Position numbers and translations under genes: made by a program
Source: a virus
Lineage: Duplodnaviria; Heunggongvirae; Uroviricota; Caudoviricetes
DNA length: 64,000 nucleotides
IMG/VR virus record: IMGVR_UViG_2788499997_000004
Strand: one strand, 5' to 3'
In this document: in pieces, positions 2,900-25,090 of the stretch
How positions within the stretch are numbered: position 1 is the stretch's first letter
Layout: every line of letters starts with the position of its first letter
The notes under the pieces: model-generated
Seen by the model: only the letters and a program-made list of their open reading frames with translations
The model's database searches: none
Told to the model about the DNA's origin: nothing

Positions 2900-3532
2900 C
2901 TAATGATTCTTGATATATGCAAGATAAATGAATTCTAACATGGCTACGAGTCTTTCTGTTCTGACAGGGACAGATACTCTAGCTGTTTTCCCATCTCTTG
3001 TTTCTGAAACACCAATCATCCAGTTTCCTTCACGATTTCCTGGAGTGACTGTAAATGTTCTTTGGAATGCCTTCCCTTCAAATTCGGGTTGTTTAAATTC
3101 ACTAAAGACTGCTGAAGCGAATTTTTTCTTTCCATCTCTCATGGCTTCTCTTTCTGTTGCTTCTAAATCAAAGATATAGCCTGACGTAAAGGCCCATCTT
3201 AAGTATAGTAAATTCTTAAAATCCAAATAGTAAGGGATGAACGCCTTTTGTTTGTTGGATTCATCTAATTCGACGAAGTTCATATGAACCTTACAGTCCA
3301 TACCTGCATCATCATCAACCAAATTAAATCCATCCTGTAAAACTTCTAGGAATACATCTCCTCCTGTTTTTCTTTGAGCATATACTTTATCAATTTTCTT
3401 AGCATATTCTTTCTTATCTTCCTTTTCTTTGACTTCAGTTTTAACTTCTGAACTCATAGTTTTAGGAGTATATGTTTTCATTTCTACTCCCTTGTTTTCT
3501 TTGTTTGCTTTTGCTTTGTCTTTTAATCCCAT
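2900..3532 (-). CDS. hypothetical protein
   Basis: A 210-aa ORF with an RBS ggagg and the start ATGGGATTAAAAGA shared with three other genes here. No recognisable motif. Confidence 0.4.
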   Translation of the reverse strand: MGLKDKAKANKENKGVEMKTYTPKTMSSEVKTEVKEKEDKKEYAKKIDKVYAQRKTGGDVFLEVLQDGFNLVDDDAGMDCKVHMNFVELDESNKQKAFIPYYLDFKNLLYLRWAFTSGYIFDLEATEREAMRDGKKKFASAVFSEFKQPEFEGKAFQRTFTVTPGNREGNWMIGVSETRDGKTARVSVPVRTERLVAMLEFIYLAYIKNH

Positions 3533-3650
3533 AGTTTTCCTCCTTTAAACAAAAAAGACACACCTCATGTGCGTCTTTTCTTTCGTATATGATTTACATA
3601 TATATTTTATCATAAATCATTATTTCATTGTAAAGATAAATAATAATAAT

Positions 3651-3668
3651 TTGGTCACTAGTGACCAA
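3651..3668. repeat. perfect palindrome TTGGTCACTAGTGACCAA, copy 1 of 5, downstream of parB
   Basis: Exact inverted repeat with the 14-bp core GGTCACTAGTGACC. Confidence 0.8.
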
Positions 3669-3675
3669 ATTTCAG

Positions 3676-4686
3676 TTAGTCAGCAATTTTGGATTTTAGA
3701 GTATTTAAAACTGTTTCGATTTCCTGAATACTATCTAGAATTTCCTTTCTCTCATTTTCATCCACTGTTATTTTTATTCCATCCATTTGTTGTACCTGTT
3801 TTTTTATCTTATCAATGTTCTTGATTGCTTCAAATCCTTTCATTCGAGAAACCTTTTTTGGTTTTGATTCTTTGAAAGTCTTCAGATAAGCCTTGAATTC
3901 CTTGTCTGTCATTTTATTAGATTTTTCTAAAACATTTTTCTGCATCTCAAGAGGCATATCAGACACTATAAGTGCCTCACTTTTTGAAATATATTCTTTT
4001 TCATAATATTGTCTCAACATTGGATGTCCGTTGTAGATTTTGTAATATTGTTTAATTGCTGTTCGCCCGAAACTATACCCCATATCCTTAAAGGCGTATT
4101 GTATCTGTTCAATTTTTTCTTTTTTAGGATTGAAAGATACATAATTTCCTTCATCATCTTTTTCAAATATAATATCAAAGCAACTAAACAACTCATCTAG
4201 TTCAATTTTTCTGTTGTATGCATTGGTTTCAACAATAACTTCTTGAATTTCCTGCTCAGTTGTTCCTAAAGGTAAAACTGTACACCATACCTGAGAAAAA
4301 CGCTCTGCGACTTTTTCGTTTCCTTCATCAATTGCAGAATTATGAATATTTGTAATAGCTTTAAAACGTCTTGAACCAGCTTTGATTTCATATTTCCCAG
4401 AAGGTTTACCATCCTCATTTTGTAGCGTCAGAATAATGATGGGTTGTAACTGTCCTAGTTTTTTTATTGATTTTTCTAGATAATAAGTCCCTTTCACTTT
4501 AAATGGATTAGCTGTGTTATCGACCAATTTATCTAATGTAATATATCTCGCATTTAATCTGGTTGTTTCAGCTAATGTTTTTTCTATATTATCGGCGTCT
4601 ATTGCCATTCTTTGTTGAGGTGAAAACAAACTTGTGCTATGTTGGCTTTTACCCATTGAATTTATCGACTTTCTCTGCTTAGCCAT
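3676..4686 (-). CDS. parB: ParB-like partition protein
   Basis: ParB N-terminal box GQLQPIII...YEIKAGSRRFKA (GxRRxRA-like). An ATG at 4686 overlaps the parA stop (ATGGCTAA coupling); the track ORF extends to 4725. Confidence 0.6.
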   Translation of the reverse strand: MAKQRKSINSMGKSQHSTSLFSPQQRMAIDADNIEKTLAETTRLNARYITLDKLVDNTANPFKVKGTYYLEKSIKKLGQLQPIIILTLQNEDGKPSGKYEIKAGSRRFKAITNIHNSAIDEGNEKVAERFSQVWCTVLPLGTTEQEIQEVIVETNAYNRKIELDELFSCFDIIFEKDDEGNYVSFNPKKEKIEQIQYAFKDMGYSFGRTAIKQYYKIYNGHPMLRQYYEKEYISKSEALIVSDMPLEMQKNVLEKSNKMTDKEFKAYLKTFKESKPKKVSRMKGFEAIKNIDKIKKQVQQMDGIKITVDENERKEILDSIQEIETVLNTLKSKIAD

Positions 4687-5641
4687 TGCTTTCATCTCCT
4701 TTCTCGTTTTCTTCATCTTGTTCAATGATTTCTTTTGCTAAAGAATATATGGCTTGTCTATATGATTGCCAAGCTTTGCCATTTTGTTGAACAGCAATCT
4801 CACCTGTTCCTGATAACTCTTTTAGCTTCAAGTTTCTTGGTATGATTGTTTTAAACATGTGAAGATTATTGTTACTAGCATAATCTGAAACCTCATCATA
4901 GGTTCTCTTGTCAAAATTCGTTTTTGCGAATTCATTGAAAAGCACCCCTCTTATTTTGAACATAGGAAGCACCTGACCTAAATCCTGTAAATTATCAAGA
5001 ACCATATCAATTCCTAATGTACTTAATTGGTCTGTAATTGTTGGGATAATAATAGAGTCACATGCTAATAATGTACTAGTTACCAAGTATCCTAAATTTG
5101 GTGGACAGTCAATAAAGATATAATCATAATCATACATCTTCTTGATTCTATTCACAATCATAGCTAATACTGCAGTTCCATATTGTCTATTTTCAGGCTG
5201 TATAATAAAGGCGTCAGGTGGAGCTGCTGAATATATAAGTTCTGCTAATGATAAATCCTTACCAACGCTTGGAATTAAATCAAAGTAGAATTCCGTTTCT
5301 TTATCTTCCCATTGAATAGTTCCTTCTTTTCTTTGACTTTTTAGATATGTTGGGCGTATGATAGTTTCTTCAAAATCTTCATACTCAGGCAATTCCCCGA
5401 ACCATTGATATTTTTGTTCTAAATACCCTAACGTGCTGACTCCATCATCAACCTCAACTCTTCCGTTTTCCTTAATTGACATATTTGCCAAAAAGCTTAA
5501 TGAACATTGGACATCGTTATCAATAACCAACACCTTCTTATTAAAATCTCTACCTAACGTCTCCGCTAGATTTATGGTTAATGTGGTTTTCCCGACACCA
5601 CCCTTTGAATTATACATAGTAATAACTTTTGTATCGCTCAT
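4679..5641 (-). CDS. parA: ParA/Soj-family partition ATPase
   Basis: Deviant Walker A NSKGGVGKTT near the N-terminus; 320 aa; lies directly upstream of parB. Confidence 0.8.
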   Translation of the reverse strand: MSDTKVITMYNSKGGVGKTTLTINLAETLGRDFNKKVLVIDNDVQCSLSFLANMSIKENGRVEVDDGVSTLGYLEQKYQWFGELPEYEDFEETIIRPTYLKSQRKEGTIQWEDKETEFYFDLIPSVGKDLSLAELIYSAAPPDAFIIQPENRQYGTAVLAMIVNRIKKMYDYDYIFIDCPPNLGYLVTSTLLACDSIIIPTITDQLSTLGIDMVLDNLQDLGQVLPMFKIRGVLFNEFAKTNFDKRTYDEVSDYASNNNLHMFKTIIPRNLKLKELSGTGEIAVQQNGKAWQSYRQAIYSLAKEIIEQDEENEKGDESNG

Positions 5642-5840
5642 TTCTTATCTACCCTTTCTATTCATTAAATAATTATAGCGAAATTAAATTATATAATCAA
5701 ACCTTTTTATATAATATAGACTGATTAAAAAAGTGACTTTTAGAATTTTTTTAGATATTTGCGATTTTACAAGGAAACACATAGAAATCTTCACTTAGCG
5801 TATTCCTTACTATAACCTATCCAAACTCCATATATTAAAA

Positions 5841-5858
5841 ATGGTCACTAGTGACCAT
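5841..5858. repeat. palindrome ATGGTCACTAGTGACCAT, copy 2
   Basis: Same 14-bp core GGTCACTAGTGACC; lies 200 bp upstream of the parA start. Confidence 0.8.
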
Positions 5859-5952
5859 TTTTGTTTATTATTTATTTATTGCTAATATTGATATTATCCT
5901 TGCTATCTTCTTTAATATCTTTTTAATGTATTTGATTTGTACTTATTGGATT

Positions 5953-5968
5953 TGGTCACTAGTGACCA
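5953..5968. repeat. palindrome TGGTCACTAGTGACCA, copy 3
   Basis: Same core; about 112 bp from copy 2. Confidence 0.8.
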
Positions 5969-6072
5969 TTTTTGAAAACATCATTTTCGCGCCCTCTGTC
6001 ATTTATGACAGTTTCTATCTATACCCTATATAACTTCATATTTCATATCGCATACTTGTATAATATTGTTTC

Positions 6073-6090
6073 TTGGTCACTAGTGACCAA
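6073..6090. repeat. palindrome TTGGTCACTAGTGACCAA, copy 4
   Basis: Same core; about 120 bp from copy 3. Confidence 0.8.
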
Positions 6091-6099
6091 ATTGAATTT

Positions 6100-8100
6100 A
6101 TGAAGAATAAAGCATTGACTTTTAAAGGACTTCTTCCTTATGTCATATAAATTATAACTTTATATTCTAGGACGATTTTTTATTGTTTTATAAGGTTTTT
6201 CGATAGGTTTTTTTTAGTATTTTTCTCTTCTCTATATTTCTTTGGTTTTTTATACGTTTTATTCCATTTTTCTTTAGTTTCTATAATCATCTATCAATAA
6301 TACCCCCCTATTCTCGTCCCATTCAAACCCTACTCATCTCCCATTAATTCAAATGTATTTAGATAGAATTTGAATAGCTTATTCATTTAGACTCATTATG
6401 TATTCAACCCCTATTTATCTTCTATCCAACCTCCTTCATCCTCACAATTCATATTCTCACCATATCTGTCGATATCTTTTTCTCTATCCTTTATCTTATC
6501 ATATCCATACCACATCATATATGACGAGGATTGAGATAGAGTTTTATTAGGATTGTATATAAACACTCGTCTCTACTTCTTCACAAAAGAAAAGAGATGA
6601 AATCCTATCATTCCCCTATCTATTCCCTACAAGCTCAAGCTATACTTTAGTTGATATCCAGTAACGTTGTAGAGTGATGATAGAATATGGATAGAAAGAA
6701 GTCGCTTCTGTGCTAATTATTACCCTATACAAAAAGAATCCACACCTATTCATATCCTATCCAATTCCCCATAAATAAAGTAATGCTTTATAAAAGGATA
6801 TTGATAGAATTGAAATAGTATATCTATAAAAAAACTAATCATAGACTTTACAATTGTACATAATCAATCCTATTTATAATCTATCAAATATCCTATACGT
6901 ATAAAGTATGATGAATTGAATATAGCAAGGTTTTAAATAGATGCTGTGATATTTCTTTACAAAAGTCGTGATTAAAAACCTTTCATAATCTTTTACAATT
7001 CCTTCAGAACGAATCAGGAGTTGAAGGAATAGAAAAGAATTATAAAAGAATCTATCTTCTTCCCTCATTCTAAAATGACTCTTTTCATATCCAAATATCT
7101 ACACCTTGTACCAATCTAAACCCTATCCAAACTCATTCAAGAACTCATTACATTATGAAAAGTTAAATTTAGATTTTGGGAAGGATAATATCCAGCTAAA
7201 TTATTGCTAAAGTATAACTTGAGTCATAGAAGAATTCTATCAATAATCTTTCAAGCTTCTTTCAGAGCTTTTATATAAGATAGGGTTAGTAGAGATAATG
7301 GATTTTGATAGATGATGGATAGTATTTAGCTATGACATATAAAAATTATTATTTTATCAAAAAAGAAAATCCTATCAACACTCTATCATAATCCCTTCAA
7401 TCTCAATTCATATAAAGTATAGCTTTTGTTATAAAAAGAACAACCCCTCATAAATTCCATTCATCTCCCATTCTGAATATAAAAATCTTATCGCATAGAA
7501 ATAGTTTTAATAGAAGATAAAAAGAATATGAGGAGATTAAATGTACTTGGTATAAAATTATCAAATACCAATGTAACACCATCTAAACTCTTTTCAAAAC
7601 AAAAAGATAACGATATCAGTTGAATAAGATAATGATAGAAGTAGGAGGGATGTGCAAAGAATCTTAATACACCATCAAAACTCTATCAAAAGCCTAATGA
7701 TATTGAATTGTAAAAGTTTGGATGATGATAGACTTTAGATGGGGTTGAAAGGGTTAAATTGATGGAAGGGTTTGGAAAGAATGTGGAAGGGTTCATATGA
7801 GCCTAAGAATAGGATAATGAGGGATATAGATAGACTCGTATTGGAAAAACAGTAAAAAAATACGATAAATCGCATATTTATCAAGAAAATAGTATTTTTA
7901 AGGAAAAAGAGGGAAAACCAATTAAAAACTATCAAAAAACCAATAAGAAATAGGATAAAACTTAAAGTTATTATTCTTATTGTATAAGGAAGAAGTCCTC
8001 TTAAAGTCACTTTCATCAAACACCTAATTTATCCATCACAAAGAAGAATATGATACAATAGATACGTAATCTAATACGAATGGAGACATGTCATCGGCAT
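6100..8100. repeat. AT-rich non-coding region with iterated TCTATCAA-type motifs (candidate iteron/origin region)
   Basis: No ORF of 100 aa or more over about 2 kb. The motif (A/T)TCTATCAA(T/A)A or a close variant recurs at about 6289, 6875, 7234, 7373 and 7681, with many CTATC cores. Confidence 0.35.
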
Positions 8101-8134
8101 GTCTCTTTTTTTGTAAAATTAAAGGAGGAATACA

Positions 8135-8791
8135 ATGAAGAAAAAGAAATGTCCAGTCTGCGGTGCATTACTAGACGAGGACAATGAATTAAGATGCAGT
8201 CGCTTTCCCATCTGCACCTTTCAAGAATCTACAAACACAAATCTAGAAAGATATATCATGTATGACCTTGAAACATCAGGATTTAAGGATAGTGACCATA
8301 TCATAGAAATTGGAGCTATTTATGTAGAGGATGGAAAGGTTGTGGATGGGTTTGATAAATTATGCAACCCTGGAATTTTCATCAATCAGAGAATCACTCA
8401 AGTAACAAACATTACAAATGATATGTTAAAGGACAAGGAGTCTGAAGAAAGTGTACTGAAGGAGTTTATCGAATGGGTCCACTCAAAGAATACAGACGTC
8501 TGTGTCGGTCATAACATTGACGCGTTCGATAACAGAATGTTAAACGCAGCATGCAAAAAATACAGACAGCAAATGCCATTCCATAGAACACTAGACACCC
8601 TCAAAATGGCAAGGAATCTAAAATTAAAGGAAAGGGGGGTAGTCCAAGATTATAAACAGGAAACATTGGCAAATGAATATTGTCATTTTACATATTCAGC
8701 CCATAGAGCAATCCAAGACGTAGAAGCATTATTTAGAATTTTTGAAGTTTTAAGAAAGGAATATCAACAACTTCCAATTATCAATATCTGA
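8135..8791 (+). CDS. DnaQ-like DEDDh 3'-5' exonuclease with N-terminal zinc ribbon
   Basis: CPVCG...C..C precedes Exo I YIMYDLETSG, Exo II VGHNIDAFDNRML and Exo III YSAHRAIQDVEAL. RBS aaaggagg. Confidence 0.7.
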   Translation: MKKKKCPVCGALLDEDNELRCSRFPICTFQESTNTNLERYIMYDLETSGFKDSDHIIEIGAIYVEDGKVVDGFDKLCNPGIFINQRITQVTNITNDMLKDKESEESVLKEFIEWVHSKNTDVCVGHNIDAFDNRMLNAACKKYRQQMPFHRTLDTLKMARNLKLKERGVVQDYKQETLANEYCHFTYSAHRAIQDVEALFRIFEVLRKEYQQLPIINI

Positions 8792-8794
8792 TAA

Positions 8795-9505
8795 ATGGGA
8801 TTAAAACAGAAGTGTCTAAATAATGCAAAGAAATCTAACTATCTTGGAGATAAATGTTTTGAAGAAACATCTATGCACTATCTAGAGAACACTCAGATAT
8901 TCAAGGACATGAATATTAGAGAAATCGTTCATGATAGAGCAAGACAATTAAAAGGTATTGATGCTATAGGAAGCATAGGTAATGATAGTATCAATGTCGA
9001 TGTCAAGGCTATCGCATCTCAATTAAATACATTTTGCTTTGAAATAAGTGGTAATGTATCAACAAATCAGGTGGGATGGCTGATTAATCCAAAACTAGAA
9101 ACAACACATTATCTGATTGTCTATCACACAGTGAAAGGAGCTGAAAGAAATTACAGATTAGGAAAAAGAATTATGACAGTCAATAACGTGATAGAAACAG
9201 AAGCGTTGTTAATAGAAAAAGAAAAACTGAAGTCATTCATTCAAAAAGAGTTAGGACAGAATCTTGATAGTGTTGTCAAGGAAATCAGAAAACAGGATTT
9301 AGAGGGTAGGGGAGTTGTAAGATTCAATAAAGAAATGAACGTAGTTAAAGGTACAGTGAATCAAAAAGCTTATCCTACAATTTCTCTAGGTTTAAAAGAA
9401 CAGCCTATCAATGTGGTTGTCAGAAAAGAAAGCTTAAAAGAATTAGCTGACAAGCATTGGATTATAGAAGATGAAAAGAATTTGGTCACTAGTGACCAAA
9501 TCTAA
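8795..9505 (+). CDS. hypothetical protein
   Basis: A 236-aa ORF starting MGLKQK. Its 3' end contains palindrome copy 5. Confidence 0.4.
   Translation: MGLKQKCLNNAKKSNYLGDKCFEETSMHYLENTQIFKDMNIREIVHDRARQLKGIDAIGSIGNDSINVDVKAIASQLNTFCFEISGNVSTNQVGWLINPKLETTHYLIVYHTVKGAERNYRLGKRIMTVNNVIETEALLIEKEKLKSFIQKELGQNLDSVVKEIRKQDLEGRGVVRFNKEMNVVKGTVNQKAYPTISLGLKEQPINVVVRKESLKELADKHWIIEDEKNLVTSDQI
9481..9500. repeat. palindrome TTTGGTCACTAGTGACCAAA, copy 5 (20 bp perfect)
   Basis: Exact inverted repeat at the 3' end of ORF 8795-9505. Confidence 0.8.
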
Positions 9506-9649
9506 AATTCACTTATTATCTTGCTAAATAAACATGATTAACTTTCGCACATTAAAGAAAATATATGATATACTTTATGTGTAAATATTATACGAGAAGA
9601 GATTCATGTAGCTGTGAATCTCTTTTTTATTTGAAGGAGGAAAATTTAA

Positions 9650-10275
9650 TGCCAAGTTTAAGAGGTAGAGCAAAAGCTAAAACAGAATCACAAGAAACAA
9701 AAGGAACTAAAACAGTAGATGTAAGAATGAGAAAAGTAGAATTTGAAAAGAATCCATCACTTAAAGCATTCTTTAATGCAACAGTATCAGGTTATCCTGT
9801 ATCTACAAAAGTAACATTTACTGAAAAAGAAGATGGTGACGATTCTATTTATGGAATTCTATTCCAATCTCAAAAAGGTAAAGATGGTAAATATTATGAC
9901 CATATTCACCCTATTGACAAAGAAACAAGAACCATCATTGTCAATAACTTGTTATCAGCTTTTACAAAGTTTTTTGAAGGAGACGAAGATGTCACTATTG
10001 ATGAAAATGATGTAAAGGTATCACAAGTTGTAGAAAAAGGCAACTTTAAAGGTCAGCTTGGAGACGCTATTATTGAAACATCAAGACCTATGGCGCTTCA
10101 AAACTTAGAATTACATCAAAGTAAAGATGGTAATTACTATTTAGCATATCCAGGTCGTAATTATAAAGATTCTAATGGTGAGTGGCAAAAAATGCCATAT
10201 TATTGGCCACAAAAAGATAGTGATACGACACAAGCTATCTTAGAAGCTGCAGTCAAAGAATATGAAAAAGCTTAG
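9650..10275 (+). CDS. SpoVG-like protein with tandem SpoVG-type domains
   Basis: Domain 1 VDVRMRKV...GYPVSTKV...YYDHIHPIDKETR resembles the SpoVG DVRLR...IAHPI...R pattern. A second copy follows (YYLAYPGRNY...). The ATG at 9650 follows gaaggagg; the track ORF starts further upstream at 9565. Confidence 0.45.
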
Positions 10276-10296
10276 AGCTAAATAAACGATAGAAAA

Positions 10297-10324
10297 GGGA
10301 TGCTCTGGCATCTCTTTTTTATTT
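10297..10324 (+). terminator. rho-independent terminator-like hairpin
   Basis: GGGATGCtctgGCATCTC followed by a run of six T. Confidence 0.45.
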
Positions 10325-10332
10325 AATCGGAG

Positions 10333-10905
10333 GTGTTTCGTATTAGCCTAAAAAAAGTTTCACGTGAAACGAAATCCATCAAAAAACTCCCATCAATCCA
10401 ACTTTTTTTAGACGTCTCCTCTACAAACACAGGAGTTGCTATCTTGTTGGAAGATGGAAGGGTGATGATGGACTCAATCAACCTCAAAAGATTCCAAAGA
10501 CCACCCTGTATGTCTTTGACAGATTATGAAAAGGTCAAGATAGGAGTCATCAAGGAATATCTAGATAAGCTTGAAGAGAAATACAGGATTGATTTGGTGT
10601 GTGTTGAGGGTATATTCATTCGCCCTGGATATAATCAATCTTCTCAAATTCTTCTCAAACTCCACGGATTTTTGATGGGATATTTTCTGGATACACCATT
10701 CATATCAATACCACCATCAAACATTAAAAAAGCTATAGCAGACAAGGGTAATGCAAAAAAGGAAGAAGTGAGAGGAAGATTAGAAGAGGTATATCAATAT
10801 CATTTTCGAAGTGATGATGAAAGTGATGCAATGGCTCTGCTTGTCACTTACAAGGGCCATAGTCAATATCAAATAGAACAGAAGGAGGATACTTATGGAA
10901 TATGA
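10333..10905 (+). CDS. RuvC-like Holliday junction resolvase
   Basis: N-terminal LFLDVSSTNTGVAIL resembles the RuvC GIDPGxxxxGxAV motif, and C-terminal DESDAMALLVT resembles the RuvC DAADALAIA motif. The track start is GTG. Confidence 0.5.
   Translation: MFRISLKKVSRETKSIKKLPSIQLFLDVSSTNTGVAILLEDGRVMMDSINLKRFQRPPCMSLTDYEKVKIGVIKEYLDKLEEKYRIDLVCVEGIFIRPGYNQSSQILLKLHGFLMGYFLDTPFISIPPSNIKKAIADKGNAKKEEVRGRLEEVYQYHFRSDDESDAMALLVTYKGHSQYQIEQKEDTYGI
10357..10370. promoter_or_regulatory. parS-like site GTTTCACGTGAAAC, matching the central 14 bp of the Firmicute chromosomal parS tGTTNCACGTGAAACa
   Basis: Perfect 14-bp palindrome identical to the Spo0J/ParB parS core; located inside the 5' end of the RuvC-like gene. 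Confidence 0.45.
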
Positions 10906-16330: not shown

Positions 16331-17953
16331 ATGGACAAATATTATAAATATGAAGACAAAATAGTCAATTCCTTTCTTTTTGTACCAAAGTTCTTGTTTT
16401 CTGACGAACGCTTTATGAAGTTAAGTGTCACAGAGAAACTGATTTATTCCTTATATCTACACAGATATACAATAAGCCAATATCATGACGAGATAGGACG
16501 ATATATCATTTTTACTGATGATGATGTTGTTGACAAACTTTACATCACTTCAAGGACTTGTATCAGAGCTAGAAAAAAACTCGAAGAAGCAAATCTCATC
16601 AAAATCCAAAAAACTCTAACATATAACAAAATCTATCTTGTGAATGTACTGAAAGCTTCTGAAAGTGAACATTTCTTTAACGAAAATGATTTAGAGGGAT
16701 TAAAATTTTATCAGTTCCCAAGAGAATTCTTTGAAGATACTTATAAAAACTTAACACTGAATGCCAAGATGGTCTATACAGTTTTTCTAGATACTTTAAC
16801 TCTTAGTCAAATGAATTACTTTGTAGATTCTAACAAAAGGATTTATTTTCAGGAGAACATGGACATACAGATAAAAAAACTAAATCTAACAAAGCCGACA
16901 ATACGTGAGGCAAGATACCTCTTGATGGTATGTGGATTGTTGTTAGAGTATAAAACTTTCACTGAAGATATCAGATATTATCCATTAAAGCTGTCTCATT
17001 ATACAGATAGAACTGCTGAATATAAGAAATGTAAGACAGCGAAAGAGAAAAAAGCATTTATAGAGAAGACAACAAAACAAGACAAAGATGAGTTAATACT
17101 GAATCCATTAAAAATAGGTGTAAAACTTCACGACTATAGAAAAGACGCAGGACTTACACAGACAAGACTAATCTCTTTATTAAGAGAAAGAAATGTAGAT
17201 ATTACTCAGCAGACTTATTCTGCGTATGAAAATGGAAAGTTACATATCAAAAAAGAACTATATGATATCTGTTTAGAGTGCATACAAGACGAAAAGAAAA
17301 AAATGTCTGAGTATACAATACCAAAAGAAAATATTGTCATAAATGACAACCCTAAAGAAAAAAATTGTCATGACATACAAGATAAAAACAAAGAAATGTC
17401 AGTAGAGGAAGAAAAATTAGTCACGAATGAAAAGAAAGAATTGACATCTCCTGAAAGAAAAGAAAGTCATATAAATTATACTTATACAAACAAAACAGAA
17501 AATAATTATAATGAAAAATTAATAGAATTAATTAATTATATTAATAACATTATAAATACTTCACATATTCTTTTAGAAGAAAAAGATTACTTAACTGCAT
17601 GCTTTGATAAACTTCGTATATATAAACGATTCTATCTCAATACTTCACAAGAACTATTCACAACAGAAAGGTTATATGAAATCTTACAGAAGATGAATGA
17701 AAAAAATAAAGTTGAAGAAGTGTGTTTGAAGATTTTAGATAGAATTGAAACTAGCCATTATCAATTTAAAACCCCTGATTCAGCCATCAATTGTTTTATT
17801 ACTTTCTTGCTTAATGAACTAAAAGTAGAGGAAAAACAAGCTGATGATGTCCCAGAATGGTTTTCTAAAAAGAAATTTCAGTTTAATAGATTACCTGAAC
17901 GAAAAATAGAAGTGTCAGATGAAATAAAAGACTATAAATGGTGGGAGGAATAA
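16331..17953 (+). CDS. RepA_N-family plasmid/phage replication initiator with C-terminal XRE-like HTH
   Basis: N-terminal FLFVPKFLFSDERFMKLSVTEKLIYSLYLHRY and a second FYQFPREFFEDTYKNLTLNAKMVYTVFLD (RepA_N signature), plus LHDYRKDAGLTQTRLISLL as an HTH. Confidence 0.6.
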   Translation: MDKYYKYEDKIVNSFLFVPKFLFSDERFMKLSVTEKLIYSLYLHRYTISQYHDEIGRYIIFTDDDVVDKLYITSRTCIRARKKLEEANLIKIQKTLTYNKIYLVNVLKASESEHFFNENDLEGLKFYQFPREFFEDTYKNLTLNAKMVYTVFLDTLTLSQMNYFVDSNKRIYFQENMDIQIKKLNLTKPTIREARYLLMVCGLLLEYKTFTEDIRYYPLKLSHYTDRTAEYKKCKTAKEKKAFIEKTTKQDKDELILNPLKIGVKLHDYRKDAGLTQTRLISLLRERNVDITQQTYSAYENGKLHIKKELYDICLECIQDEKKKMSEYTIPKENIVINDNPKEKNCHDIQDKNKEMSVEEEKLVTNEKKELTSPERKESHINYTYTNKTENNYNEKLIELINYINNIINTSHILLEEKDYLTACFDKLRIYKRFYLNTSQELFTTERLYEILQKMNEKNKVEEVCLKILDRIETSHYQFKTPDSAINCFITFLLNELKVEEKQADDVPEWFSKKKFQFNRLPERKIEVSDEIKDYKWWEE

Positions 17954-19149: not shown

Positions 19150-19232
19150 GTCCTCGTGATGGAACAGGTAGACATGCATGGCTTAGACCCATGTGCTTAT
19201 GCGTAAGGGTTCGAATCCCTTCGAGGACACCA
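19150..19232 (+). tRNA. tRNA-Leu (UAG), long variable arm
   Basis: Acceptor GTCCTCG/CGAGGAC, anticodon loop CTTAGAC, T-arm GGGTTCGAATCCC; CCA encoded. Confidence 0.6.
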
Positions 19233-19276
19233 ATATCACTCCAATGCTTGTAAAGAGTGAATATATGAAATTATAT

Positions 19277-19349
19277 GAACATCTAGCATAATGGAAATGC
19301 GTAGGGTTCAGCGCCCTTCATGATACTGGTTCAAGTCCAGTGGTGTTCA
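19277..19349 (+). tRNA. atypical tRNA-like gene (anticodon CAG if read canonically), no encoded CCA
   Basis: Cloverleaf with D arm GCATaatggaaATGC and T arm ACTGGttcaagtCCAGT. Anticodon loop TTCAGCG has a pyrimidine at position 37 and a 27-43 mismatch. Paralogous to 19725-19797. Confidence 0.35.
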
Positions 19350-19399
19350 AATGCCATATTAGAAATAAAGCTAAAACAGGGATAATCATATCCCTACAT

Positions 19400-19537
19400 G
19401 GTCCTTTAGCTCAGTAGGTAGAGTAGATGACTGTTATACATCACTACATCAAATAAAGAAAGTTAAGTACGTGATGTATGTCAACACTTTGTGTTGATAA
19501 ATCATGGTTACAGGTTCGAATCCTGTAGGGACCACCA
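19400..19537 (+). tRNA. tRNA-Asn (GUU)-like gene interrupted by a 64-nt insert (19437-19500) between positions 37 and 38
   Basis: Acceptor GGTCCTT/AGGGACC+ACCA, D arm TAGCTCAGTAGGTAGAGT, anticodon half GATGA-CTGTTA | insert | A-TCATG, T arm ACAGGTTCGAATCCTGT. The insert folds into two hairpins (ATACATCAC/GTGATGTAT and TCAACAC/GTGTTGA). Confidence 0.45.
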
Positions 19538-19565
19538 AATATACATTTTTTGTGACAAACAATAT

Positions 19566-19642
19566 TGGTGAGTAGCGTAGTTGGTTAGCGCAATCGGCTG
19601 TTAACCGATGGGTCGTGGGTTCAAGTCCCACCTCGCCAGCCA
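19566..19642 (+). tRNA. tRNA-Asn (GUU)
   Basis: Anticodon arm ATCGG-CTGTTAA-CCGAT, T arm GTGGGTTCAAGTCCCAC; CCA encoded. Confidence 0.65.
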
Positions 19643-19643
19643 T

Positions 19644-19719
19644 GGCCTGTTCGTCTAAAGGTTAGGACACAACCCTTTCACGGTTGCAATGTTGAGTTCA
19701 AGTCTCACACAGGTCACCA
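19644..19719 (+). tRNA. tRNA-Glu (UUC)
   Basis: Closely resembles Firmicute tRNA-Glu; anticodon arm CAACC-CTTTCAC-GGTTG; CCA encoded. Confidence 0.65.
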
Positions 19720-19724
19720 AAAAT

Positions 19725-19797
19725 GGACATCTAGCATAATGGTAATGCAAAGGGCTAATTACCCTTTATGATATCGGTTCAAGTCCGATGATGTTCA
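19725..19797 (+). tRNA. atypical tRNA-like gene (loop CTAATTA), no encoded CCA
   Basis: Same architecture as 19277-19349: D arm GCATaatggtaATGC, anticodon stem AAGGG/CCCTT, pyrimidine at position 37, a 6-nt variable region, and the T arm ATCGGttcaagtCCGAT. Confidence 0.35.
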
Positions 19798-19857
19798 GAA
19801 TCTAATAATTATATAGACTATGTATTATGTATTGTTATTAGGGCTTAGCCCTAAAGT

Positions 19858-19934
19858 GGACATTTAGCTCAGGTGGTTAGAGCCATCGCCTCATAAGCGA
19901 TTGGTCGGAGGTTCAAGTCCTTCAATGTCCACCA
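19858..19934 (+). tRNA. tRNA-Met or Ile2 (CAU)
   Basis: Anticodon arm ATCGC-CTCATAA-GCGAT; D arm TAGCTCAGGTGGTTAGAGC; CCA encoded. Confidence 0.6.
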
Positions 19935-19944
19935 TATAAAGATG

Positions 19945-20018
19945 GTGAGGTTAGCTTAATGGTAAAGCGCTGGACTGTGGCCCCAGTTATGCGAGTTCGA
20001 TTCTCGTACTTCACACCA
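19945..20018 (+). tRNA. tRNA-His (GUG)
   Basis: Anticodon loop CTGTGGC; an extra G precedes the acceptor stem at 19944 (possible G-1); CCA encoded. Confidence 0.5.
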
Positions 20019-20023
20019 TATAT

Positions 20024-20100
20024 TGGAAAGTAGCTCAGTTTGGTAGGGCGCACGCTTTGGGAGCGTGAGGGCATGGGTTCAAATCCCATCTTTCCAGCCA
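20024..20100 (+). tRNA. tRNA-Pro (UGG)
   Basis: Anticodon arm CACGC-TTTGGGA-GCGTG; acceptor TGGAAAG/CTTTCCA; CCA encoded. Confidence 0.6.
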
Positions 20101-20106
20101 TATATG

Positions 20107-20182
20107 CCACCATAGCACAACTGGCAGTGCAACTGACTTGTAATCAGGAGGTTGGAGGTTCGATTCCTTCTGGTGGCACCAT
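20107..20182 (+). tRNA. tRNA-Thr (UGU)
   Basis: Anticodon loop CTTGTAA; acceptor GCCACCA/TGGTGGC; CCA encoded. Confidence 0.55.
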
Positions 20183-20187
20183 ATACG

Positions 20188-20274
20188 GGGAGGTATGCCT
20201 AGTGGCGATGGCACCTGACTGTAAATCAGGCACGTTAGAAACACCGGTGGTTCGAATCCGCCCCTCCCCACCAT
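20188..20274 (+). tRNA. tRNA-Tyr (GUA), long variable arm
   Basis: Anticodon arm CCTGA-CTGTAAA-TCAGG; acceptor GGGGAGG/CCTCCCC; CCA encoded. Confidence 0.6.
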
Positions 20275-20281
20275 TTCAAAT

Positions 20282-20370
20282 GCCCAAATGGTGAAATCAG
20301 GTAGACACACTGGACTTAAAATCCAGAGGAAAATAATTCCGTGCCAGTTCGAGTCTGGCTTTGGGTACCA
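20282..20370 (+). tRNA. tRNA-Leu (UAA), long variable arm
   Basis: Anticodon arm CTGGA-CTTAAAA-TCCAG; CCA encoded. Confidence 0.6.
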
Positions 20371-20376
20371 TATTTT

Positions 20377-20451
20377 GCGGGTGTGATTCAACGGCTAGAA
20401 TGTCAGCCTTCCAAGCTGAATACGTGGGTTCGATTCCCATCACCCGCTCCA
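20377..20451 (+). tRNA. tRNA-Gly (UCC)
   Basis: Anticodon arm TCAGC-CTTCCAA-GCTGA; acceptor GCGGGTG/CACCCGC; CCA encoded. Confidence 0.6.
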
Positions 20452-20456
20452 TAAAT

Positions 20457-20546
20457 GGAAAGTAAATCCAAGAGGTTTTGGAACACGCCTGCTAAGCGTT
20501 GTGTGGGTATGACACCCATGAGTTTCGATTACTCTGCTTTCCGCCA
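20457..20546 (+). tRNA. tRNA-Ser (GCU), long variable arm
   Basis: Anticodon loop CTGCTAA; long extra arm GTGGGTatgaCACCCA; CCA encoded. Confidence 0.5.
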
Positions 20547-20549
20547 TAT

Positions 20550-20625
20550 ACGTCCTTAGCTCAGAGGAAAGAGCACGCGCCTTCTAAGCGTGATGTCAAA
20601 GGTTCGACTCCTTTAGGGCGTACCA
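20550..20625 (+). tRNA. tRNA-Arg (UCU)
   Basis: Anticodon arm CGCGC-CTTCTAA-GCGTG; CCA encoded. Confidence 0.6.
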
Positions 20626-20634
20626 ATTCAATAT

Positions 20635-20711
20635 CGCGGGGTAGAGCAGTTTGGTAGCTCGTCGGGCTCATTCCCCGAAGGTCGCAAGTTCAAATCTTGC
20701 CCCTGCAACCA
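20635..20711 (+). tRNA. initiator tRNA-fMet (CAU)
   Basis: Near-identical in outline to E. coli tRNA-fMet (CGCGGGGT.GAGCAG..TGGTAGCTCGTCGGGCTCAT...CCCGAAGGTCG...GTTCAAATC...). Has the C1-A72 mismatch and three G-C pairs in the anticodon stem. Position 37 is T. Confidence 0.65.
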
Positions 20712-20713
20712 AT

Positions 20714-20788
20714 GGTGCATTCGTATAATGGTTAGTATGCTTGACTGTCTATCATGAGATAGGGGTTCGATTCCCCTATGCACCGCCA
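20714..20788 (+). tRNA. tRNA-Asp (GUC)
   Basis: Anticodon loop CTGTCTA; acceptor GGTGCAT/ATGCACC; CCA encoded. Confidence 0.5.
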
Positions 20789-20794
20789 AAAAAC

Positions 20795-20879
20795 GCCGAA
20801 TGTCCGGGTGGTGAGGAAGGAGTCTTGAAAACTCTGGGCGGGCAACCGCTTGCAGGTTCGAATCCTGTGTTCGGCGCCA
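20795..20879 (+). tRNA. tRNA-Ser (UGA), long variable arm
   Basis: Anticodon arm GGAGT-CTTGAAA-ACTCT; CCA encoded. Confidence 0.5.
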
Positions 20880-20880
20880 C

Positions 20881-20956
20881 GGTTTCGTAGCTCAATAGGT
20901 AGAGCGCGTGGCCGAAGACCACGGCAGTATTGGTTCAATTCCAGTCGAAACCACCA
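20881..20956 (+). tRNA. tRNA-Phe (GAA)
   Basis: D arm TAGCTCAATAGGTAGAGC; anticodon arm CGTGG-CCGAAGA-CCACG, with C at position 33; CCA encoded. Confidence 0.55.
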
Positions 20957-20961
20957 TAAAT

Positions 20962-21040
20962 GGGAAATGGGACTGCTTGGAGTGGTCATCTGTTTTGCAC
21001 ACAGAACATCAGATGGGTTCGAATCCCATATTTTCCACCA
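20962..21040 (+). tRNA. tRNA-Ala (UGC)
   Basis: G3-U70 wobble in the acceptor stem (GGGAAAT/ATTTTCC); anticodon arm TCTGT-TTTGCAC-ACAGA; CCA encoded. Confidence 0.6.
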
Positions 21041-21047
21041 AAAATCT

Positions 21048-21122
21048 AGGAGCGTAGCACAAAGGTGAGTGTACACGACCGATAATCGTGCGATGTAAGT
21101 TCGAGTCTTGCCGTTCCTACCA
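21048..21122 (+). tRNA. tRNA-Ile (GAU)
   Basis: Anticodon arm CACGA-CCGATAA-TCGTG, with C at position 33; CCA encoded. Confidence 0.5.
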
Positions 21123-21129
21123 TTTATAT

Positions 21130-21201
21130 CATCTGTAGCTTATATGGTAAAGACACAGCCGTTAGTGCTGGGGAAGTTTGGTTCGACTCCAGACCGGATG
21201 C
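21130..21201 (+). tRNA. degenerate or atypical tRNA-like gene (anticodon loop CGTTAGT; would be UUA if read canonically)
   Basis: Good T arm TTTGGttcgactCCAGA and a 6-of-7 acceptor pairing, but the D arm is poorly paired, position 33 is G, and no CCA follows. Confidence 0.3.
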
Positions 21202-21613
21202 CAGAGTTAAGGATTCTCTGAGAAAAATCTATATTGGAAAGGACCACGGTGAGGAACTGTAAGCTTTTTTGCGACACTATTCCAAAACCGAAAGCATCTA
21301 GCTAATGCCTTGTTGGTCTGAGTTTCAAGTGCGAGGTTTGGGGCAGCTTGAACAAGAAATCGTATGGGAATAAAAAATCTGACGACAGCCGGATTGACAA
21401 TATATTTCCGTCCTGTATAGGTAAAAGTGGTTTGATGTGAACCGTCAAAAGAAAAAACATCGCTGTCAAATACCGAACAAAGGATAAGAGTAGGTAAAAG
21501 ACAAACCAGAATTCTTGAGGCTATTAACCTCTATTTGAATATCATTGAATAAGTTAATGGTCAACAGTCCATTGGGTAACTCCATAGGAGCGCTGTTAGG
21601 TCTTTTCTTTTAT

Positions 21614-21690
21614 AGCAGAATGGCGAAATTGGTAGACGCACAGGACTTTGACTCCTGCATTTGAAGGTTCGAACCCTTCTTCTGCTGCCA
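21614..21690 (+). tRNA. tRNA-Gln (UUG)
   Basis: Acceptor AGCAGAA/TTCTGCT; anticodon arm CAGGA-CTTTGAC-TCCTG; T arm GAAGGttcgaacCCTTC; CCA encoded. Confidence 0.6.
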
Positions 21691-21714
21691 AAATACTCAA
21701 ATGGGGTGATAGAT

Positions 21715-22299
21715 TTGTCAACTTATTATGATTATTATGTTTTTATTAAAAAGGATAATAAGTATAAGTATGCTGGATACTATGATATCTCTGGCAAACC
21801 CCTTCCCATATATTATCATACCCGTAGCTTCTCATACGGTTTCTTAGATTATGGACAATACGTTAATGACCTAGATAAATATGGTATCCATTTACCAAAC
21901 GAAGGTGATGAGGAAGATGAAGCCAGATTTGGTTACCTTTTCCAATTACCAGACATAGATTCCATTCCAGACAGAAGCCATAAAGAAGCTTATATATATC
22001 AAACTCTACAAAGAGATATGGAAATTAATCATTTCGAATATGACATAGAAGAATATTTGGAAAATGATGAAGAATCTGTCGATGGGCATCCACTTGTTAT
22101 CTGCAAGAGCGAATTTGATAGATTGTCATTAGATAAACAAAGGGAATATTTTTACTATCACTGGACTGATTATGAAGATATGTCCTACCATAGAAATATT
22201 CTATGTACCATCATCAATAACTGGATTAATATAAGACAATTCAAGGAATTCAGTGATGTAGATAGAAAAGACATTTATATTGTTGCCTTTGGAGGGTAG
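21715..22299 (+). CDS. hypothetical Tyr/Asp/Glu-rich protein
   Basis: The track ORF starts at 21661, inside the tRNA-Gln T arm. The real start is more likely TTG 21715 or GTG 21706, after GGGGTGA. Confidence 0.4.
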   Translation: MSTYYDYYVFIKKDNKYKYAGYYDISGKPLPIYYHTRSFSYGFLDYGQYVNDLDKYGIHLPNEGDEEDEARFGYLFQLPDIDSIPDRSHKEAYIYQTLQRDMEINHFEYDIEEYLENDEESVDGHPLVICKSEFDRLSLDKQREYFYYHWTDYEDMSYHRNILCTIINNWINIRQFKEFSDVDRKDIYIVAFGG

Positions 22300-22312
22300 G
22301 GGGGTGATGTAA

Positions 22313-23041
22313 GTGCAATGTAAAATATATAAACGCACTTGGTCGTTGAAAAGGAAGTATCAATCAGAAGCGAGTTGTTATTATCTTTTTGATATTGATT
22401 ATCCTTTTCCTTATAAACCATCCTATTTAAAAGCTCACAATTATCCTCGATTTTGGTGGACAACAGAATGGAATCTTATCTGTGATGAATTCAATCCTGA
22501 AAAGTATGAAGATATGGAATGGTTTAGGAAGAATGTTGCAGGATGCTTTGTGTCTCCTAAAGCGCTTAAATATATTCCATTTGCCAAATCAGATGATGAT
22601 TTCCCTGTCCATGAAATATATGAAATAGAAGTTGTACAATATAAGGTAGTCAATGAAATGGGCTATCCTATAGATATGAATAACTATATCAGTGATTATA
22701 TTGAGGAAAATATTAGAAGGCGTAAGGAAACAGCACAACATTTCGATATTGGTCGTTATTATCCATCTCTACGCTACTATTGGCGAAATCCTCAAACAAC
22801 AAATGAAAAAAGACAGCAGTTATCTAAAGAGGAGAAAAGATACTATCAGGAAAACGGATGGCCTATCCAAGAACGTTCTAAAAGAAATGCAAGGAATTTG
22901 CCAGACCTGTTTGACGATAAATTCATCCATGTTGATAAATGCTGGAAATCTCAGACTCGTCAGTCTCGACAATATTTTAGAAATAAAAGAGCCAAAAGAA
23001 AAAGAATTCATGGAGAGGAATATAGGAATTTTGTGGGGTGA
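22313..23041 (+). CDS. hypothetical protein with basic C-terminus
   Basis: 242 aa; C-terminal RNKRAKRKRIH. Confidence 0.4.
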   Translation: MQCKIYKRTWSLKRKYQSEASCYYLFDIDYPFPYKPSYLKAHNYPRFWWTTEWNLICDEFNPEKYEDMEWFRKNVAGCFVSPKALKYIPFAKSDDDFPVHEIYEIEVVQYKVVNEMGYPIDMNNYISDYIEENIRRRKETAQHFDIGRYYPSLRYYWRNPQTTNEKRQQLSKEEKRYYQENGWPIQERSKRNARNLPDLFDDKFIHVDKCWKSQTRQSRQYFRNKRAKRKRIHGEEYRNFVG

Positions 23042-23340
23042 TATTCTTGTCATATACTCAAAAACGTCATTCAAAAGAAGATATTCGACATGAAGCATGT
23101 GTTCATATCAAAAGAAAAGAAAAAATATTAAAGAATGTTTATGATGCGGGCAATGGTGAATGTAAAAACAATGAAAAACTTGGCTCTTACTACGGATACA
23201 CGAAAGGAAAGTCGCACCGTCTTTCAAAAGGCAAAATTCATTGCTCCTGTCCAATGTGTAGAGAAAAGACGAAGGAAAGAGGATGGAAACACGCTGATGA
23301 AGTCAATATGATGAAAGGACTTGAAGATGAGAGAGAATAG
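23038..23340 (+). CDS. small basic Cys-containing protein (paralog of 25187-25444)
   Basis: SHRLSKGKIHCSCPMCREKTKERGWKHADE aligns with THRLSDAKIHKSCPLLQRKTNKLGYSYSDKK in the downstream paralog. Confidence 0.4.
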   Translation: MIFLSYTQKRHSKEDIRHEACVHIKRKEKILKNVYDAGNGECKNNEKLGSYYGYTKGKSHRLSKGKIHCSCPMCREKTKERGWKHADEVNMMKGLEDERE

Positions 23341-23469
23341 CCAATGTGAATGATGGATAATTCTAGAAAAAATCCGTCAAGACTCTACTCCTATTGAGGA
23401 TGGGAAAAACTCAAGCTGAAAGATGCACCAATAACCAAGTATAAGAGAAAGGCTATCATATATATTTAT

Positions 23470-23544
23470 CTGTCTGTAGTCCAATGGATAGGACGCAGAG
23501 CTACGAACTCTGAGATGGTGGTTCGATTCCATTCAGGCAGACCA
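23470..23544 (+). tRNA. tRNA-Arg (ACG)
   Basis: Acceptor CTGTCTG/CAGGCAG; D arm GTCCaatggataGGAC; anticodon arm CAGAG-CTACGAA-CTCTG; CCA encoded. Confidence 0.6.
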
Positions 23545-23557
23545 GTGAGGTATTAAG

Positions 23558-24169: not shown

Positions 24170-24344
24170 ATTGAATGTAACATATGAAGAATTAGTCAAT
24201 CATGTTAAAGACTCTTTAAAAATGAAGAATGTCCCTTTAACAAAAGTGAAAGATGTAAAAGCATATTATGTTCCTAACACAAAAGTTTTGTATTACACAG
24301 CCATGTATAATGGTGAAGAAATCAAAGGAGAAAAATACTTGTAG
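24138..24344 (+). CDS. hypothetical small protein
   Basis: 68 aa; overlaps the upstream gene. Confidence 0.3.
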   Translation: MKMKLEIQTNELNVTYEELVNHVKDSLKMKNVPLTKVKDVKAYYVPNTKVLYYTAMYNGEEIKGEKYL

Positions 24345-25089: not shown

Positions 25090-25090
25090 T

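Follow-up and report, generated by a model that had tools for sequence, protein, structure and literature searches.

Five candidate parS sites around parA and a divergent ParB gene in a 64-kb sequence assigned to Caudoviricetes

Background

In chromosomal ParABS partition systems, the canonical parS site is the 16-bp sequence TGTTNCACGTGAAACA, which is bound by Spo0J/ParB, a cytidine triphosphate (CTP)-dependent sliding clamp. N15 carries several dispersed Sop centromere palindromes, and in pB171 a second centromere is also located downstream of parB. The locus described here lies in the IMG/VR virus record IMGVR_UViG_2788499997_000004 (Caudoviricetes), of which a stretch of 64,000 nucleotides (nt), hereafter the window, was analyzed. 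An earlier note, made from the sequence alone, had pointed out five copies of a perfect palindrome around a parAB gene pair in this window. These five palindromes are very likely parS sites bound by the co-encoded ParB, serving partition and probably also regulation, and the system would be a type I partition system (Walker-type ParA, CTPase-type ParB) of a large, low-copy extrachromosomal replicon.

The sopC repeats contain a 16-bp inverted repeat that is bound by SopB (PMC3177203), and the specificity of the F and N15 SopB proteins is set by the helix-turn-helix (HTH) together with one base per half-site (PMC2910045). KorB is a ParB-family CTP clamp that acts on short palindromes, both near promoters and distant from them, and takes part in partition as well as in transcription control (PMC11790492). 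According to the title of a work cited there (reference 20 in PMC11790492), RK2 has 12 OB sites spread over the whole plasmid.

Five palindromic sites around parAB

The 16-bp palindrome TGGTCACTAGTGACCA is present in exactly five copies in the 64 kb of the window (Table 1). A search with the 14-mer GGTCACTAGTGACC resulted in five exact matches, starting at 3653, 5843, 5954, 6075 and 9484, and no sixth copy was found in the window even when two mismatches were allowed. The expectation for this 14-mer is 0.06 matches per window, and five copies were reached in none of 100 dinucleotide shuffles. The relaxed pattern GGTC-N6-GACC matched the same five places only, and isolated half-sites are not enriched elsewhere. 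All five copies fit in 5.8 kb, which has a probability of 3e-4 for five random points in 64 kb.

The earlier note was therefore right about the five copies around parAB, with their coordinates, spacing and placement correct within a few bases. Its start positions point to the right places and differ from the 14-bp core by 1-3 nt, a deviation without consequence. The palindromes are perfect as it described, with lengths of 16-26 bp instead of 18-20 bp, and the start-to-start distances of the three copies upstream of parA are 111 and 121 bp, nearly the 112-120 bp it gave. As a check, it had proposed a count over the replicon; the count over the 64-kb window resulted in five sites, all near parAB, without uniform scatter. 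Beyond the window, the analysis covered L001 and L237, which make up ~42 kb of a related 231-kb contig, and L236, with 21 kb from another relative, and no sites were found in a further 40 kb of related replicons.

Site 4 is located 25 nt from a conserved promoter-like element at 6115, on its upstream side. Site 5 lies on the far side of the zone free of open reading frames (ORFs) from parAB, ~65 nt upstream of a SpoVG-like gene, and is read in the 236-aa ORF as TTG GTC ACT AGT GAC CAA, encoding L V T S D Q (ORF end ..N L V T S D Q I *). This ORF (8795-9505) has no match in Pfam, PHROG or NCBIfam, and the palindrome sequence was not found in the literature searched. Helical phasing of the 111/121-bp spacing was considered and rejected, as there is no consistent phase and the spacing is not kept in the relatives L001 and L006 (56 bp).

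Table 1. Coordinates of the sites, genes and other features discussed in the text (window positions)
Feature	Position	Strand	Description
parS-like site 1	3648..3671		24-bp perfect palindrome AATTTGGTCACTAGTGACCAAATT; 14-bp core starts 9 nt past the parB stop
parB	3676..4686	-	divergent CTPase-type ParB, 336 aa; mechanical ORF extends to TTG 4725
parA	5641..4679	-	Walker-type partition ATPase, 320 aa
ORF-free AT-rich zone	5642..8134		2.5 kb, 28% GC; between parA and exonuclease gene; no ORF of at least 100 aa
Best sigma-70-like promoter match upstream of parA	5672..5700	-	TTGATT-17-TATAAT; consensus match only, tentative
parS-like site 2	5837..5862		26-bp perfect palindrome; 202 nt upstream of parA start
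parS-like site 3	5953..5968		16-bp perfect palindrome TGGTCACTAGTGACCA; 313 nt upstream of parA start
parS-like site 4	6073..6090		18-bp perfect palindrome; 434 nt upstream of parA start
Promoter-like element	6115..6162	+	TTGACTTTTAAAGGACTTCTTCC-TTATGT..ATAACTTTA; conserved; points into ORF-free zone
Inverted second copy of promoter-like element	7963..8010	-	points into ORF-free zone
236-aa ORF hosting site 5 at its 3' end	8795..9505	+	conserved; orthologs 62-100% identical in syntenic loci
parS-like site 5	9480..9501		22-bp perfect palindrome in the last eight codons of ORF 8795-9505
RepA_N-domain protein, 540 aa	16331-17953	+	RepA_N 1.4e-16 and HTH; ~29% identical to staphylococcal RepA proteins

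ParA and ParB proteins

The gene assignments of parA and parB were upheld. ParA matches AAA_31 (3e-30) and CbiA (4e-19) in Pfam as well as the ParA family phrog_164 (1.5e-43). In NCBIfam, the match to ParA_partition is partial, and the SopA and RepA models gave partial, sub-threshold matches only. The deviant Walker A motif K13-GGVGK-T19 is located at the extreme N-terminus of ParA, which therefore has no N-terminal HTH domain. The probable start of parB is the ATG at 4686 (MAKQRKS), with AGGAG 9 nt upstream. The parB start overlaps the parA stop by 8 nt, likewise in the relatives, which suggests translational coupling.

ParB reaches 25.1 bits with the Pfam model ParB_N, for which the cut-off is 26.3 and which is matched by 13 of the 15 family members, and it matches phrog_4715, a 'ParB-like partition protein', with 1e-14. 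Across the 15 aligned family members, the segments LGQLQP and Y-E-x-K-A-G-S-R-R-F are invariant, the latter leading into the GxxRxxA CTP-binding motif (G114-S-R-R-F-K-A, also invariant), as are the residues E163, T164, N165 and R169 in box III (E-x-N...R). Judged by motif order, this box would be equivalent to E111/N112/R115 of Spo0J. The structure was modeled with AlphaFold2 on the 15-sequence alignment (confidence score pLDDT 76). The model comprises the N-domain, an HTH (helices 201-211 and 218-228, with the invariant G213 in the turn between them) and two long C-terminal helices. A Foldseek search of the PDB with this model returned ParB-CTP and ParB-CDP complexes from Myxococcus, Caulobacter and Bacillus (7bnr, 7bm8, 6sdk) as top matches, followed by Noc (7ol9) and KorB (8qa8, E 2e-6). 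These alignments extend over ~230 columns, covering the N-domain and the DNA-binding domain, with E-values of 3e-8 to 6e-6.

A word-seeded search of 5.8 billion proteins identified only 16 clusters of this ParB lineage. No match to ParB was found with tblastn in phage and plasmid collections, nor to window positions 3000-10500 with megablast in the same collections. A ParB search of IMG/VR yielded no relative, and scans of GTDB genomes, one with a ParB profile and one with a two-site DNA pattern, yielded nothing. The exact 16-mer has four singleton matches in IMG/VR, which were taken as chance because none is on a record encoding a ParB relative. The relaxed pattern TGGTC-N6-GACCA...TGGTC-N6-GACCA resulted in more than 120 IMG/VR matches per scan, and those inspected were collagen-like GPTGPT repeats without a ParB relative, so this two-site pattern is useless outside AT-rich non-coding DNA.

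Comparison with described partition systems

The locus resembles chromosomal ParABS systems in several respects. Its ParB has a ParB/Srx N-domain (GxxRxxA, ExN..R), then an HTH domain and a helical C-terminal part, with 7bnr, 7bm8 and 6sdk as the best structural matches. Its ParA is of the Walker type without HTH, and its 16-bp palindromic site occurs several times within a few kb of parAB and of a putative origin zone. Compared directly with the canonical parS, whose consensus is established knowledge, the outer bases TG.T....A.CA coincide. In contrast, the inner 8-10 bp differ from TGTTNCACGTGAAACA and none of the five sites is within three mismatches of it, so the earlier statement that they are not canonical chromosomal parS was correct. 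The system also differs from its chromosomal counterparts in the marginal similarity of ParB (E = 0.002, Noc), in the length of this protein (~336 aa), in a C-terminus predicted as two long helices, and in being carried on an extrachromosomal element and exchanged as a cassette.

With F SopABC, N15 Sop and P1 ParABS, the locus shares an HTH ParB-family protein and a centromere palindrome directly downstream of parB. However, no sequence relationship to these three systems is detectable beyond the family level. The N-terminal autoregulatory HTH of type Ia proteins (P1 ParA and F SopA, ~390-400 aa) is missing from the 320-aa ParA with its Walker A at residue 13. Single palindromes on either side of the operon take the place of a tandem 43-bp array or a box A/box B-IHF site.

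As in RK2 IncC/KorB, a ParB-family protein (structural match 8qa8) is combined with a short palindrome at multiple separated sites. Two of the five sites of the window abut promoter-like sequences. Unlike in RK2, the five sites of the window are found within 6 kb and their sequence differs from the OB core TTTAGCGGCTAAA. In addition, no clamp-locking partner resembling KorA or TrbA was identified, a search for such a partner not having been made.

Type Ib systems such as pB171 par2 and TP228 likewise have a ParA without HTH and centromere/operator repeats upstream of parA, and their centromere-binding protein autoregulates the operon, as is proposed here for ParB. They differ in having a small ribbon-helix-helix protein and a ParA of ~200 aa, compared to an HTH/CTPase-type ParB of 336 aa and a ParA of 320 aa. 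Taken by analogy, the locus would combine the workings of a chromosomal-type ParABS system with a layout that recalls plasmids: the putative centromere that follows parB is reminiscent of F and P1, and the sites that precede parA are reminiscent of type Ib.

Sites in syntenic relatives

The loci with ParBs that are 58-80% identical to the window protein by tblastn (L004/L005, L002/L003, L006 and L001) are syntenic with the window. Five syntenic loci, the window included, contain 30 GGTC-N6-GACC sites. In 30 of 30 cases, the site is flanked by a 5' T and a 3' A, neither of which was part of the search pattern (T-GGTC-N6-GACC-A). The positions are maintained as well. A site follows the parB stop by 2-9 nt in all five loci. 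The region from the exonuclease gene to parA holds another 2-7 sites, most of them in a cluster upstream of parA, and in L001 and L006 the closest ones precede the parA start by 28-132 nt. In L001, L002, L004 and L006, a site is also present at the 3' end of the ortholog of the 236-aa ORF, where TTG-GTC and GAC-CAA keep L-V-x-x-D-Q and the two central codons change.

The 6-bp center of the sites varies between and within replicons (ACTAGT, AGTAGT, ACTAGC, GGTGGC, GCCGGC, GGGCCC and others). The idea of a SpeI/ACTAGT restriction site was rejected, as this center is not conserved among the relatives. The bases at the inner positions 6/9 are non-complementary in 11 of the 30 sites and those at 5/10 in five. 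The combination of invariant outer bases and an often non-palindromic center points to a dimeric protein reading the outer half-sites and not to a selected hairpin.

Exchange of the partition cassette

Two of the relatives provide natural swaps of the partition genes. On both flanks, L004 and the window share 93-100% identity. The segment from ~5669 to ~3577, which comprises parA, parB and the site downstream of them, reaches only 63-85% identity to the window, compared to 86-99% to L002, and the site after parB in L004 is the L002 variant ACTAGC. At the protein level, the flanks are 97-100% identical to those of the window, compared to 76% for ParA and 80% for ParB.

Between L001 and the window, the identity is 95% and 90% outside 3614..8120 and does not exceed 70% inside. 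Therefore, the site after parB, parB, parA, the upstream sites and the AT-rich zone were replaced as a unit. Most flanking proteins are 91-99% identical (75% for orf210 by the breakpoint), compared to 65% for ParA and 58% for ParB. Like the sites of L006, whose ParB most resembles that of L001, those in the replaced block belong to the GGTCG..CGACC type, and the site in the 99%-identical 236-aa ORF retains the window sequence. The recombination breakpoints are sharp in both relatives. Based on these two swaps, the sites adjacent to parAB travel with parAB and not with the backbone. Such a cassette exchange of the partition module is consistent with selection on incompatibility.

Distant ParB homologs

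A second set of loci encodes ParBs that are 38-44% identical to that of the window. Except for L014, a distant syntenic relative, these loci have only parA and parB in common with it. L007, L008 and L009 are RepA_N plasmid-like loci in which repA_N is directly divergent from parA, and L015 is a primase/ArdC element. All five of these loci possess their own 12-14-bp palindromes of the form GG..AY-NN-RT..CC upstream of parA and/or just after parB. L008 contains seven copies of a GGTTATCGATAACC-like palindrome, L007 and L009 three copies each of GGTTAYCGGTAWCC, and L014 five copies of a GGGTTATCTAACCC-like palindrome, one of them 11 nt past the parB stop. In L015, where parB stops at 2638, GGATACTAGTATCC is found at 61, 2659 and 2764. 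The site past the parB stop thus lies at a distance of 11-21 nt in L014 and L015.

The putative recognition helix of ParB differs between the groups (GRTAIKQYYKIY, SPASVKDYMAIY, SKSSVKDYLTIY and SRVSIKDYWSIY). The lineage-specific site variants of this ParB family parallel the specificity differences between the SopB proteins of F and N15.

An orphan ParB homolog with 40% identity, without parA, is encoded in L016 (8001-8984) and L018 (8825-9808). Its neighborhood resembles a chromosomal origin and consists of dnaN, recF, gyrB, gyrA, an amidase gene, the parB-like gene and serS, with 28% GC. This homolog may have been domesticated or may be a chromosomal representative of the family.

The ORF-free zone

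Across the ORF-free zone upstream of parA, gene orientation diverges and the GC skew changes sign. The zone contains 29 CTATC/GATAG motifs, often as TCTATCAA or CCTATCCAA, which corresponds to 11.6 per kb and a ~4-6-fold enrichment. The density is the same in L004 and L002, and only 3-5 per kb in L001 and L006. An Rfam scan of 5600-8200 gave no match. The zone is a candidate origin or incompatibility region.

At both ends of the zone, a promoter-like pattern, TTGACTTTTAAAGGACTTCTTCC-TATNNN...ATAACTTTA, is present in inverted orientation, and its copies sit in the only two blocks of the zone that are alignable out to L001 and L006. A search with this pattern detected both copies in the window, L004 and L002, and the exonuclease-side copy only in L001 and L006. 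Judged by its sequence and arrangement, the pair could drive convergent transcription into the zone or provide binding sites for some other factor. The promoter scan in general gave matches in AT-rich DNA that were overall not enriched over shuffles.

Only ~28 nt before the start codon of the exonuclease gene, at 8082-8106 (+), lies a strong terminator-like hairpin (11 pairs followed by TTTTTTT). This hairpin is a 5' leader or attenuator, or else it ends a transcript that leaves the ORF-free zone.

Interpretation and alternative explanations

The interpretation of the palindromes as ParB-bound parS sites is supported by five lines of evidence. The sites are confined to the parAB area. The co-encoded ParB has CTPase-type motifs and a predicted two-domain fold like that of Noc, KorB and other ParB proteins. 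Relatives keep the 16-bp frame as well as the positions, and distant homologs on unrelated backbones have related palindromes at the same positions. Finally, the sites were exchanged along with parAB in recombinants. The earlier proposal of a replicon-specific parS and/or an operator of parAB agrees with everything that is testable in silico, with the restriction that the element may be a phage-plasmid instead of a megaplasmid.

The mechanism outlined here follows the established behavior of chromosomal ParB, F SopB and KorB (PMC3177203, PMC2910045, PMC11790492). A ParB dimer would read each palindrome via its HTH (predicted helices 201-211 and 218-228, ..FGRTAIKQYYKIY), mainly by contacts to the outer TTGGTC half-sites. 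Binding to the site would trigger a CTP-dependent closure of the N-domains. ParB clamps would thereby be loaded at the five sites, with sliding or spreading across the ~6 kb that contain parAB and the AT-rich zone. Through the basic N-terminal peptide of ParB, the partition complex formed in this way would stimulate ParA-ATP bound to the nucleoid, and sister copies of the replicon would be moved apart. The cluster of three sites upstream of parA would probably also allow ParB to autoregulate parAB. ParB is the likely autoregulator because ParA is without a DNA-binding N-domain. The nearest sites in L001 and L006, 28-132 nt upstream of parA, could overlap the parA promoter. The roles as centromere and operator are not mutually exclusive and are not separable with these data.

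Several observations weigh against this interpretation. All support for it is comparative and by homology. Only 64 kb were seen of a replicon that is likely larger than 200 kb, so more distant sites are possible. The sequence similarity of ParB to solved ParBs is weak (E = 0.002, Noc), and its ParB_N score is just below the Pfam gathering score. The closest site of the window precedes the parA start by 202 nt and lies farther out than the best, weak promoter match at 5700-5672; therefore, a direct operator action is not evident there. L001 combines a window-type site in the 236-aa ORF with a ParB of a different type, so that either the center of the site is not discriminated or this site is a relic. 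Finally, no repeated palindrome was found in L019, which belongs to a distant ParB lineage, or near the chromosomal orphan homologs in L016 and L018.

An alternative that was judged improbable is that the sites are mainly operators of a global regulator similar to KorB, whose clamps would silence parAB, the SpoVG-like operon and the two inward promoter-like elements, with partition being secondary or absent. The structural match of ParB to KorB (8qa8, E 2e-6) fits this idea, and KorB itself, in addition to its part in partition, exerts repression from OB sites at a distance (PMC11790492). The positions of several sites would be suitable for such a role, with site 4 located 25 nt upstream of the conserved promoter-like element, site 5 ~65 nt before the SpoVG-like gene, and sites 28-132 nt upstream of the parA start in L001 and L006. 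However, ParB has a cognate ParA to which it is probably translationally coupled, and a site follows directly after parB as in classical centromeres. Furthermore, the sites are all within 6 kb, with none in the other 58 kb of the window, and are not spread over many operons. A KorA-like partner was not identified either, though no systematic search was made. Since the two roles are not exclusive, a KorB-like function is a rival in emphasis only.

It is very improbable that the palindromes are bound by another protein, such as the RepA_N-type initiator (16331-17953) or the SpoVG-like protein, and act in origin function or replication control. The sites flank or abut the 2.5-kb AT-rich zone with its switch in gene orientation and GC skew, related palindromes lie between the repA_N gene and parA in L007-L009, and the AT-rich zone was exchanged with parAB as one block in L001, all of which would be expected from such a role. 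On the other hand, the swapped cassette of L004 comprises parA, parB and the downstream site only, the palindromes of L015 flank parAB with no RepA_N or SpoVG homolog in the 10.6 kb examined, and the site after parB recurs in lineages that have only parA and parB in common.

That the palindromes act as hairpins in RNA or DNA, for instance in recombination or as intrinsic terminators working in both directions, is most improbable. The terminator scan lists all five sites as hairpins with a 4-nt loop, the RNA hairpins predicted for them have energies of -10.7 to -12.4 kcal/mol, sites 1 and 5 are at gene ends and the copy after parB precedes a T-run in L008 and L015, but three copies are upstream of parA, where no convergent gene ends, the T-tract after the parB-proximal copy is not conserved in L001, L002 and L004, and the outer TGGTC/GACCA is invariant in 30 sites with inner pairs that are often non-complementary, which is the opposite of stem selection. 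On this substitution pattern, without a compensatory stem and without a conserved T-tract, a Rho-independent terminator was rejected.

With the palindromes read as ParB-bound parS sites, the system is of an ordinary kind, and the general understanding of how partition systems work is unchanged. Its site sequence and ParB lineage are previously undescribed. The analysis yields a concrete, testable parS consensus for this uncharacterized ParB lineage, TTGGTC-N6-GACCAA, with TTGGTCACTAGTGACCAA as its 18-bp form. The relatives add a natural specificity series, in which GGTCAC, GGTCG, GGTTAY and GGATAC half-sites are paired with different recognition helices, and which is useful for studying the evolution of ParB-parS specificity and partition incompatibility. 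In addition, the locus marks the maintenance module of a large, widespread, uncultured gut element. This module could help to decide between a plasmid and a phage-plasmid and to build vectors for Erysipelotrichaceae-like hosts.

A near-canonical parS at 10356-10371

At 10356-10371, 0.9 kb from site 5, the window contains AGTTTCACGTGAAACG, a near-canonical chromosomal parS with a perfect 14-bp core (GTTTCACGTGAAAC), in which only the two outermost positions differ from the canonical sequence. It is the only match to the canonical parS within three mismatches in the window. With up to two mismatches, ~0.2 matches are expected per window, and the observed count was reached in five of 100 shuffles. 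The sequence is present at the same place in L001, L002, L004 and L014 (15 of 16 positions in L014) and is broken in L006. It falls in the first codons of a RuvC-like gene (..V S R E T K S..), and the surrounding block of ~95 nt has ~90% nucleotide identity even in L014, where the protein is 57% identical. Because this block is conserved coding sequence, coding constraint and DNA-site constraint are inseparable. Judged by its sequence, the site may serve as a docking site for the Spo0J/ParB of the host.

A far-reaching combination of these observations, which is considered rather unlikely, is that window positions 3614-8120 form a self-contained cassette for maintenance and incompatibility that can be exchanged horizontally and belongs to a phage-like episome of more than 200 kb, common in gut metagenomes. 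In such an element, ParB-CTP clamps loaded at private sites would both segregate the replicon and gate the two inward promoters into the origin zone, as a KorB-style replication control, and the element might also borrow the Spo0J of the host via 10356-10371.

The replicon and other genes of the window

The RepA_N-domain protein (Table 1) is likely the plasmid-type replication initiator of the element, judged by its domain content, and its gene lies ~10 kb from parAB. One relative is found on a 231-kb contig binned with Massilimicrobiota timonensis, and the SSB-like protein of the window on hundreds of metagenome contigs. No phage structural genes were recognized in the window or in ~30 kb of the flanks of relatives, and no conjugation genes were recognized in the window. 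The 'Hodor' gut megaplasmids (PMC12934698) were considered as the same element and rejected, since they carry Rep_3 and sortases and are a different element.

The window contains an array of 24 transfer RNA (tRNA) genes at 19150-25164 as well as genes for a RecD2-like helicase, a DnaQ-like exonuclease and a RuvC-like nuclease. One further tRNA-like gene of 135 nt at 19400-19534, detected by Rfam but missed by ARAGORN, contains ~60 inserted nt following the anticodon region. An SPFH/flotillin protein is encoded at 27835-29298. Small ORFs of 141-166 aa at 31024-34447 (+) include the paralogs 31024/31571 (41%) and 32630/33116/33570 (29-38%). The regions 41766-45903 (+) and 46897-48709 (+) encode a MoxR/CobS-like ATPase with a CobT-like protein, an arginase-family protein and a radical-SAM protein. 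Together with the SPFH/flotillin gene, this auxiliary-type gene set is typical of very large phages or megaplasmids.

The gene for a DnaE-type DNA polymerase III alpha subunit (54634-60611, -) is split into the parts 59205-60611, 57159-57962 and 54634-56091, which are interrupted by an HNH/NUMOD ORF (58116-58844) and a GIY-YIG ORF (56191-56994). In L237, which belongs to the related 231-kb contig, the PHP, polymerase-core and finger domains form one ORF of 761 aa without the HNH and GIY-YIG insertions. This comparison indicates that the gene was split by mobile homing-endonuclease insertions, either in introns or free-standing.

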